From NCBI GenBank assembly GCA_947165355.1, contig CAMUZZ010000003.1:1-62667 (forward strand): 62,667 nt of DNA. Reading direction: 5' to 3'. Positions 35,771-36,889 of this stretch are shown one piece after another. This DNA comes from an uncultured Clostridium sp. GTDB taxonomy: Bacteria > Bacillota > Clostridia > TANB77 > CAG-508. The notes beneath the pieces were generated by a model. It ran no database searches. It saw only the letters and a list, made by a program, of their open reading frames with translations, and was not told the DNA's origin. A program made the position numbers and the translations under genes. Each line of letters opens with the position of its first letter. Positions within the stretch are counted from its first letter, which is position 1.

Positions 35771-36889
35771 ATGAATAACTACAAAAGATATTTTTTAACT
35801 AGTGAATCTGTCACAGAAGGGCATCCTGATAAAGTATGTGATTATATTTCAGATTCAATCCTAGATGCTTGTTTAGAACAAGATAAAAATTCGAGAGTAG
35901 CAGTAGAAACATTTATATCTAATGGACAAGTTTCTATTGCAGGACAAATAACATCAAATGCAAATATTGATATTGAAAAAATTACAAGAGAAAAATTAAA
36001 AGAAGTAGGTTACAATGATGAAGAAACAAGTATGGATTATAGAACTTGTAAAATTAATGTAAATATTGTTAAGCAAAGTAACGATATTGCAATTGGAGTT
36101 GATGAAGGTGGAGCAGGAGATCAAGGAATAATGTTTGGTTATGCTTGTGATGAAACAGAAAGCCTAATGCCATATGCAATAGATGTTGCTCACAAATTGG
36201 CTCATAGATTAGCTGAAGTAAGAAAAGAAGGAATAATTCCATATTTGAAATCAGATGGAAAAGTTCAAGTTACTGCAGAGTATTTGAATAACTATCCATT
36301 TAGAATAGATACAATATTGATTTCAACTCAACACGATGCAAATGCAGATATGGATGAGCTTGAAAATGATATAATAGAAAAAGTAATCAAACCAGTTGTT
36401 GAGCCTGATATGATAGATATAGATACAAAATTTGTCATTAATCCAACAGGAAAATTTGTTATAGGAGGGGCTGTAGCAGATACTGGATTAACAGGAAGAA
36501 AAATTATTGTAGATACTTATGGAGGATATGCTCATCACGGAGGGGGAGCTTTTTCAGGAAAAGATGGAACAAAAGTTGATAGGTCAGCATCCTATATGTT
36601 AAGACATATTGCAAAATGTGTTGTTGCAAATGGATTAGCAAGAAAATGTGAAATACAAATTAGTTATGGTATAGGAATGAAAAATCCAATATCATTTTAT
36701 ATTGATTGTTTTGGAACAAATCGAATACCAGAAATTGATATTATAAATATAATTAAAGATACTTTCGATTTGACTCCTGAAGGAATCATAGAATATTTAA
36801 AATTAAAAGAGCCAATTTATTCAAAGACTACTAATTATGGACATTTTGGTAGGGATGGATTTACTTGGGAAGAATTAAAACAAATATAA
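35771..36889 (+). CDS. metK: S-adenosylmethionine synthetase paralogue carried by the ICE
   Basis: GHPDKVCD, GAGDQGIMFGYA, GLTGRKIIVDTYGG, GGGAFSGKDGTKVDRSASY. Diverges at GGAVAD (canonical GGP.GD). Start ATG 35771 after gaaaggaagg. Confidence 0.88.
   Translation: MNNYKRYFLTSESVTEGHPDKVCDYISDSILDACLEQDKNSRVAVETFISNGQVSIAGQITSNANIDIEKITREKLKEVGYNDEETSMDYRTCKINVNIVKQSNDIAIGVDEGGAGDQGIMFGYACDETESLMPYAIDVAHKLAHRLAEVRKEGIIPYLKSDGKVQVTAEYLNNYPFRIDTILISTQHDANADMDELENDIIEKVIKPVVEPDMIDIDTKFVINPTGKFVIGGAVADTGLTGRKIIVDTYGGYAHHGGGAFSGKDGTKVDRSASYMLRHIAKCVVANGLARKCEIQISYGIGMKNPISFYIDCFGTNRIPEIDIINIIKDTFDLTPEGIIEYLKLKEPIYSKTTNYGHFGRDGFTWEELKQI

Follow-up and report, generated by a model that had tools for sequence, protein, structure and literature searches.

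Integrative conjugative and mobilisable elements from uncultured Clostridia of the gut carry a predicted S-adenosylmethionine synthetase as a core gene

The stretch of DNA analysed here (the window; 62,667 nucleotides of contig CAMUZZ010000003.1 from an uncultured Clostridium sp.) is low in GC (~29%) and of Clostridia type. It carries an integrative and conjugative element (ICE) whose second gene encodes an S-adenosylmethionine (SAM) synthetase, MetK. Analysis of this gene and its relatives suggests that it almost certainly specifies a catalytically competent enzyme and is a core gene of a family of ICEs and integrative and mobilisable elements (IMEs) of uncultured gut Clostridia. The chromosomal genes left of the element are glmS with its ribozyme, uvrC, tRNA genes, a deaminase gene and exoIII, up to the rlmD-like gene that is the integration target. 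The element continues past the end of the window, and its right end lies beyond it. The features on which the assignment of MetK to the element depends are the following:

33710-35089, + strand: integration target, a TRAM/tRNA_U5-meth_tr (rlmD/rumA-like) 23S rRNA methyltransferase gene (Pfam matches).
35049-35092, + strand: left junction (attL side), from the alignment of seven copies (window, L001, L014-L017 and L019).
35771-36889, + strand: MetK, second gene of the element (domain, motif and structure matches).

The MetK open reading frame (ORF) runs from an ATG at 35771 to a stop codon at 36889 and encodes 372 amino acids (aa). A GTG at 35744 would give the longest ORF; homologues begin with MNNYKRY, matching the ATG at 35771, and the ribosome-binding site AGGAAGG is located 7-8 nt 5' of this ATG. 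The protein is matched end to end by the Pfam domains PF00438, PF02772 and PF02773 (E 2e-39, 3e-46 and 4e-63; 134, 157 and 212 bits), and it scores 529.9 bits against the NCBIfam equivalog TIGR01034 metK, the cut-off of which is 309.4. Among solved structures the best match is 5t8s (E 6e-127), and E. coli MetK 7ll3 is matched over residues 6-369 (E 3e-124). An earlier reading made from the sequence alone (the sequence-only reading) had described a complete MetK with intact catalytic motifs, and these domain and structure matches and the selection on the gene bear it out; all of the motifs that it listed (GHPDK, GAGDQG, GGGAFSGKD, KVDRSA and GGAVAD) are present. The His, Asp and Lys of GHPDK, the Glu of the K+ site, the Asp of GAGDQG, and Lys164, Phe229, Asp237, Arg243, Lys244, Lys264, Lys268 and Asp270 are kept in MetK and in all eight of the sampled members of its clade. 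The sole exception among the catalytic and ligand residues is the methionine-amine ligand Glu, which is replaced by Gln59, and all residues of the ATP, metal and triphosphate chemistry are unchanged across the clade. Pairwise comparison of ten copies gives a ratio of nonsynonymous to synonymous substitution rates (dN/dS) of 0.06-0.3, which indicates purifying selection. An apparent break of the gene in the related locus L024 was found to be a run of N in the scaffold, and the argument for a pseudogene was dropped; the remaining breaks are internal deletions in L025 and P0121 and a possible frameshift in L053, all of them perhaps assembly effects. As judged from its sequence, the gene is very likely an element-borne and probably active MetK.

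The last ~13 codons of rlmD (from ~35049) come from the element as a replacement 3' end. In the alignment of the seven copies the host parts diverge (54-80% aa identity in rlmD) whereas the DNA is identical from CATGTTGAATGCG (~35049) onward, and the element therefore starts inside these last codons. In the related locus L016 a gene for a large serine recombinase of 561 aa runs at its 3' end straight into this left-end sequence, so that L016 would be a circular form or a tandem copy, and this recombinase identifies, at the level of sequence, the integrase type of the family. Exact-protein look-ups of the last two proteins of the window, made in search of the right end, gave no match. An exact junction, a serine recombinase (in L016), a relaxase, an origin of transfer (oriT), a coupling protein and a type IV secretion system (T4SS) are all present in sequence. 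It is nearly certain that the family consists of integrative conjugative and mobilisable elements with a large serine recombinase, insertion into the 3' end of rlmD (elsewhere in some relatives), a MobP3-type relaxase and a Gram-positive T4SS.

The same MetK, or one 74-99% identical, occurs in the same gene order in contigs with different flanks (serine dehydratase, AlaRS-HIT, PheST-Maf or a spoIVA fragment). Metagenome-assembled genomes from goat, rabbit and Hadza guts (GTDB species representatives, in 'Clostridium', 'Lachnospiraceae' and 'Clostridia' bins) contain MetKs that are 95-99% identical, whereas identity of the neighbouring rlmD is no more than 54-80%. Conversely, a search with the relaxase alone yielded 23 loci; 16 of these had enough upstream sequence and 11 reached the position of a DNA methyltransferase gene that is described below. 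MetK is present at the conserved position in 16/16 and the methyltransferase in 11/11, which also answers the proposal of the sequence-only reading that metK be surveyed in related ICEs. Because its position is conserved in relaxase-anchored loci, near-identical copies cross species, the flanks differ and a riboswitch is missing (see below), MetK is part of the element and not a housekeeping gene captured by a boundary error, as the sequence-only reading had also held from its location; the junction at ~35049 lies upstream of it, and its position is constant between differing host flanks. The clade is widespread in animal and human gut metagenomes. The sequencing runs X37 and X38, which contain most of the gene's words, had been considered as isolate genomes and proved to be metagenomes.

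MetKs of this family form a divergent clade. More than 120 clusters (90% identity) sit at least 74% identical to the query MetK, and a search of a library of 1.8 billion cluster representatives gave, outside the query's own cluster, no full-length match of more than 57% identity. The clade (118 members) was compared systematically with 115 diverse MetK representatives, and departure from a consensus of at least 80% was scored. This comparison reveals only three departing positions, each fixed in at least 96% of the 118 members:

E59Q: Glu in 96% of other MetKs, Gln in 97% of the clade; equivalent to E. coli Glu56 (7ll3 numbering, Met1 counted) and human MAT2A Glu70.
P161S: Pro in 86% of other MetKs, Ser in 99% of the clade; in the PDxK segment.
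P234A: Pro in 85% of other MetKs, Ala in 96% of the clade; first Ala of GGAVAD.

In human MAT2A, Glu70 and Asp258 hydrogen-bond the amino group of methionine and SAM (PMC6850014). The sequence-only reading had called the GGAVAD loop unusual, which is true of one half of it: the change from Pro to Ala is rare (2/119 diverse MetK representatives), but the second Ala, in place of Gly, is common (A in 47 and G in 55 among 115-119 diverse representatives), as is the short gating loop. The rarer E59Q had escaped that reading. MetKs of phages retain Glu at this position. The three changes, all in the active site, probably leave the enzyme active and tune its affinity for methionine or SAM, perhaps through weaker product inhibition.

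Expression of MetK seems to be arranged differently from that of housekeeping metK in Clostridia. The housekeeping metK gene of C. difficile is controlled by a SAM-I riboswitch (PMC11477304), whereas no SAM riboswitch was detected upstream of MetK in the window or in 7 related loci, at either gathering or permissive thresholds. The MetK gene is instead preceded by a conserved leader, of which a second copy is present further downstream:

35689-35752, + strand: conserved 64-nt leader before MetK (direct repeat).
37814-37877, + strand: second copy of the leader, before the next operon, which starts at 37904 (direct repeat).

Both leaders end, just 5' of the ribosome-binding sites, in a 24-nt near-palindrome, GCCACAAAATCGATTGTGGTGCGA (35729-35752 and 37854-37877). 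Family members that were examined carry the motif at both places even where their MetK is only 74-81% identical, and most related loci contain two copies; the motif is missing from a transfer-less copy in Clostridium sp. CAG:356, which is discussed below. RNAalifold on 13 copies of the leader gave no consensus pairs, and a search of the leader against Rfam at a permissive threshold returned only a chance match to PhrS. The motif may therefore be read as a DNA palindrome, possibly an operator or promoter shared by MetK and the next operon. Metatranscriptome assemblies contain fragments of MetK, most clearly in run X26; depth of these contigs is no measure of expression, and some of the runs may hold DNA.

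The MetK gene is separated by four further ORFs from the putative oriT, the parts of which are:

39196-39364: putative oriT, an intergenic region of ~170 bp with four hairpins (single-stranded DNA fold z = -5.1), highly conserved across the family.
39283-39332, + strand: part of the oriT with an inverted repeat (39283-39301), the 8 nt TGTTCCTG and C, with the candidate nick between 39309 and 39310 and a further inverted repeat (39311-39332) beyond.

Across the family, compensatory changes occur in the hairpin at 39283-39301, which is followed by the block CTG(T/A)TCCTGCAAAATTGC, invariant also with two more C on its 5' side (CCCTG(T/A)TCCTGCAAAATTGC). The nick consensus of MOBP (IncP-like) relaxases is (C/T)ATCCTG(C/T) with a repeat on its 5' side (PMC3772185). 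On the + strand of our element the order is inverted repeat, 8 nt and (A/T)TCCTG, followed across the nick by C; the window has TTCCTG at this place, and an exact ATCCTG is found in L008 and L029, which represent two sub-lineages. The relaxase stays bound to the 5' end made at the nick, and it is this end that leads into the recipient. A nick on the + strand would consequently bring in the ribbon-helix-helix gene, the relaxase, the T4SS genes and the methyltransferase first and MetK last. On its other side the core is bordered by another invariant inverted repeat (39311-39332), and a nick on the - strand is therefore geometrically possible as well. On the sequence evidence we slightly favour the + strand. 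The sequence-only reading had placed MetK in the leading region of the element; that it is the second gene from the left end holds, but the direction of transfer had been assumed, and the leading position is unproven and possibly wrong.

The remaining features of the element from its left end to the methyltransferase are:

35258-35285, + strand: terminator-like hairpin and T-run just inside the element before orf120, a putative terminator read from the sequence.
35307-35669, + strand: orf120, the element's opening gene; matches no family in Pfam, NCBIfam or PHROG; 97-100% conserved in the close sub-lineage only.
37068-37247 and 37240-37812, + strand: orf59 and the DUF3560 protein (190 aa), from the match of positions 54-121 of the PF12083 profile to the 190-aa ORF and from synteny.
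37904-39195 (37904-38644 and 38641-39195), + strand: two acidic proteins of unknown function with poly-Asp/Glu C-terminal tails (246 aa, isoelectric point (pI) 4.7; 184 aa, pI 4.4).
39365-39829, + strand: 154-aa protein with weak ribbon-helix-helix/relaxosome-accessory likeness (weak NCBIfam matches to ParD antitoxin and Tn5252_Orf10, E 1e-3 to 6e-3), adjoining the oriT and the relaxase.
39867-40199, + strand: ribosomal protein S6-like paralogue with an acidic tail (PF01250, E 1e-20; TIGR00166, 68.7 bits, cut-off 42.9).
40203-41435, + strand: MobP3-type relaxase (NF041499, 149.7 bits against a cut-off of 150, E 1.4e-43; histidine motif HYEDGHPH).
41597-43411, + strand: VirD4-type coupling protein in three ORFs (frames 2/0/2), with Pfam T4SS-DNA_transf on all three pieces.
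46157-46933, + strand: orphan N6/N4 DNA methyltransferase (PF01555, E 6.5e-28; phrog_67, E 2e-51), between TraC-like and VirB4-like genes.

Further element genes on the + strand encode a pilin-like protein, TrbL, PrgI, a TraC-like protein, VirB4, an M23 peptidase, a sortase and an adhesin. The DUF3560 domain is split over two overlapping ORFs (59 aa and 190 aa). The S6-like paralogue sits between the relaxosome accessory gene and the relaxase, and it is present only in the sub-lineage of the window. The first frameshift of the coupling protein lies near an A5/T4 run and is common to all relatives, while the second is specific to the sub-lineage of the window, which has itself spread between species; in other sub-lineages the coupling protein is split at different positions. 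Function of the coupling protein in the window copy, split as it is into three ORFs, is uncertain. The methyltransferase has no nuclease partner, which agrees with the orphan enzyme that the sequence-only reading had placed on the same element.

Our best guess, and a tentative one, is that MetK supplies SAM for the element's own DNA methylation, since the methyltransferase belongs to the core of the T4SS-bearing family members and MetKs of phages usually adjoin DNA methyltransferases. In 6/7 of the Firmicute phages inspected (Javan630, Javan405, Javan244, phi-m46.1, phi1605 and YS43), one or two DNA methyltransferases follow 0-2.5 kb downstream of MetK, and the ICE methyltransferase is 25-28% identical to them. 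According to this reading MetK, free of a SAM-I riboswitch, sits behind an element-specific palindromic motif common to the next operon, and once this regulon is switched on the cell would gain a source of SAM outside host feedback. The likeliest consumer would be the element's own core N6/N4 methyltransferase. Extra SAM might then allow methylation of the element's DNA to stay complete while it is excised, copied by rolling circle and established, which would protect it from restriction. The activity of the enzyme, the regulatory role of the motif, the coupling to the methyltransferase and the effect on restriction are steps that we infer from sequence. The sequence-only reading had proposed the same link between MetK and the methyltransferase, and it gains indirect support from the 11/11 loci and the 6/7 phages, but the two genes are not adjacent and share no operon.

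Several observations weigh against this reading. A distance of 9.3 kb that includes the oriT separates MetK from the methyltransferase, and the two belong to different operons, whereas the phage pairs are adjacent. L016, which has no T4SS, keeps MetK, and no methyltransferase was seen in the 21 kb of this locus that were covered. In the X38 metagenome the arm from MetK to the relaxase (35048-41300) has a depth of ~350-470x, against ~45-90x for the T4SS part (41343-44000), which implies an abundant T4SS-less element sharing this arm. L016 and the ~8-fold deeper MetK-oriT-relaxase arm thus indicate that MetK can travel without the methyltransferase. E59Q strips a charge from the substrate site, and altered or reduced activity is possible. 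MetK also persists under purifying selection in two remnants without transfer genes. The first of these, L019 (9537-13300; host uvrC 81.5% identical), is a remnant of the element in which nothing is left of it after rlmD but orf120 and a MetK of 86% identity whose C-terminus is altered; an IS110 transposase and chromosomal genes come next. The second is the copy in Clostridium sp. CAG:356 (L009-L011, GCA_000433595.1), where a MetK of 76% identity is accompanied by a stub of the element's next gene and by no transfer genes. This MetK is found on 67 contigs, its dN/dS against the nearest ICE copy is 0.08, and the genes upstream of it (ABC ATPase, helix-turn-helix protein) recur in the ICE-bearing contig L031. 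The copy seems to have been domesticated.

Retention of MetK in such remnants is explained equally well by a benefit to the host and by one to the element. A riboswitch-free MetK might raise or stabilise the SAM pool of the host (for methylation, polyamine synthesis, radical-SAM chemistry, or surface and aggregation traits) and be kept independently of transfer. In addition to the remnants, a prophage metK of S. agalactiae contributed to aggregation and glycocalyx formation (PMC8223999), and plasmid metKs are located in radical-SAM and methionine-salvage clusters. However, MetK is tied to the oriT-relaxase module in every member of the family, the mobilisable variant included, and its regulatory motif is common to neighbours of transfer-associated type (the DUF3560 and acidic proteins). 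This tie and the shared motif suggest a role in the element's own life cycle, and we rate host benefit as somewhat less likely than a supply of SAM to the methyltransferase.

Clearly less likely than either is an early-entry function, in which MetK would lie in the leading region, be expressed at once in the recipient and counter SAM-dependent or SAM-depleting defences. As a general rule the relaxase enters the recipient last (PMC11541004). If this holds here, MetK, at 2.3-3.6 kb from the oriT and transcribed toward it, has the orientation reported for leading-region genes; all genes of the element point one way, as in F-like plasmids, and the repeat at 39311-39332 would permit the - strand nick. 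Its neighbour DUF3560 is listed among the plasmid families enriched in leading regions (PMC11541004 supplement). The anti-defence islands described there resemble our locus in their small same-strand genes beside the oriT, here including the DUF3560 and acidic proteins, but MetK is not among the families reported, and the transfer polarity of the ICE may be the reverse, given the MOBP consensus with its 5' inverted repeat on the + strand. The role in countering host defences that the sequence-only reading had offered as an alternative found no support: there is no anti-defence homology in Pfam, NCBIfam or PHROG, the leader yields no consensus structure that would resemble a single-stranded-DNA promoter, and no SAM-depleting defence was found in the literature searched. 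The SAM lyase of phage T3 is a mobile-element function that targets the SAM pool of the host in relation to restriction and bacteriophage exclusion (BREX) (10.1101/2023.02.27.530186). However, this known SAM-based counter-defence destroys SAM and inhibits MetK, whereas the MetK of the element should make SAM.

A broader proposal, about as improbable, is that the clade is a specialised enzyme whose remodelled methionine pocket renders it feedback-insensitive or yields a modified product, and which would act together with the co-regulated DUF3560 and acidic proteins in establishment or counter-defence, as a module that travels with the oriT-relaxase unit in conjugative and mobilisable forms. Changed chemistry as such, in which E59Q, P161S and P234A would alter the substrate or product (a SAM analogue, escape from product inhibition, or insensitivity to an inhibitor of the host MetK), is very doubtful. 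E59Q and P234A coincide with or adjoin the residues that contact the amino group of methionine and SAM, P161S is four residues from a conserved active-site lysine, and the three changes are near-fixed in a clade that is at most 57% identical to other MetKs. However, Gln can still accept a hydrogen bond, 3/115 of the other representatives also have Gln at the E59 position, the ATP, metal and triphosphate residues are intact, and no partner enzyme for a SAM analogue is evident. Finally, that MetK is the host's only housekeeping metK, wrongly assigned to the element, agrees with the absence of another metK from the 62.7-kb window but is extremely improbable, in view of the element junction upstream, the near-identical copies across species, the missing riboswitch, the internal-deletion variants in L025 and P0121, and the fact that the recipient had to have SAM before it acquired the element, which makes a second source of SAM in the host expected.

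Auxiliary metK genes on mobile elements are already known, from annotation and one functional study. Phage MetKs (PHROG 1569; Streptococcus Javan prophages, phi-m46.1, YS43, Erysipelothrix phi1605 and Faecalibacterium FP_Brigit) are likewise full-length, mobile and accompanied by orphan DNA methyltransferases of the same broad family, and the window MetK matches phrog_1569 with E 8.5e-134. They differ in being 45-54% identical to the ICE MetK, in having Glu at the E59 position and GGP or GGS in the loop, and in lying directly upstream of methyltransferases in replication modules, whereas the ICE MetK is 9.3 kb away from its methyltransferase and beside the oriT. Matches to Helicobacter 'phages' with metK were rejected as prophage boundaries beside a host gene. 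The metK of the S. agalactiae prophage 12/111phiA is an accessory copy beside the host's own and the only mobile-element metK that we found with experimental data (PMC8223999); it differs in its shorter protein and in its relB-yafQ-endonuclease-metK block. Its phenotypes concern aggregation, chain length and glycocalyx, not transfer or restriction, and biofilm formation was not restored by metK complementation (PMC8223999). Plasmid metKs (C. perfringens pCPCPI75-1_2 and Clostridium sp. CF011 pCF011-89) are extra copies on mobile replicons of Clostridia, but they are of the canonical type (~52-54% identical) and lie among radical-SAM, mtnK or NRPS-type genes, where they appear to feed a pathway. 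Housekeeping MetKs (E. coli 7ll3 and 1fug; C. difficile CD0130) share the fold family, the three domains and the catalytic His, Asp, Lys and Arg, but they are 52-56% identical, have a SAM-I riboswitch in Clostridia and are without E59Q, P161S and P234A. Neither of the housekeeping traits, a SAM-I leader and a stable chromosomal neighbourhood with vertical descent, is seen for the MetK of the element.

Our literature search on MetK of ICEs, of conjugation or of leading regions found nothing specific. What sets the present case apart is a clade specific to ICEs and IMEs that goes with the oriT-relaxase module, has a regulatory motif of its own and differs at three fixed positions of the active site. 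Orphan methyltransferases are familiar cargo of mobile elements, and some of these elements deplete SAM, as phages do with their SAM lyases; a strongly diverged MetK that selection maintains as a fixed part of a widespread family of gut ICEs and IMEs points to the opposite strategy, in which the element brings its own supply of methyl donor outside the host riboswitch. If this is true, elements of gut Firmicutes would have in SAM supply a means to establish themselves or to evade restriction, and a natural MetK variant with an altered methionine pocket would be worth characterising. If only the host benefits, the gene would exemplify a core metabolic enzyme that spreads by conjugation and later becomes domesticated, the CAG:356 remnant being an instance.

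Some further features of the element and its relatives were noted. The C-terminal half of the 190-aa DUF3560 ORF matches phage 'primase' PHROG families. Poly-Asp/Glu tails end four proteins of the element, with EFEDDEEEEM (37240-37812), VEDEEDEELE (37904-38644), EDYYDDEEFE (38641-39195) and EDSEEDEQEM (39867-40199). In sequence these resemble the tails of single-stranded-DNA-binding (SSB) proteins or a shared recognition signal. The sortase is encoded together with a 1049-aa surface protein with a thioester domain and SpaA repeats (51254-56105), which is presumably a mating adhesin. L016 (CAMEHU010000024.1, 27 kb; serine recombinase region 7600-9290) has a second relaxase-like gene and no coupling protein, and with a cargo of Fic, AraC/GyrI, radical-SAM and ParB-helix-turn-helix genes it looks like a mobilisable variant. 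In L006-L008 (7370-7645) a more distant version of the element adjoins a short C-terminal fragment of SpoIVA in place of rlmD, which suggests that this version inserted into the sporulation gene by means of a serine recombinase.

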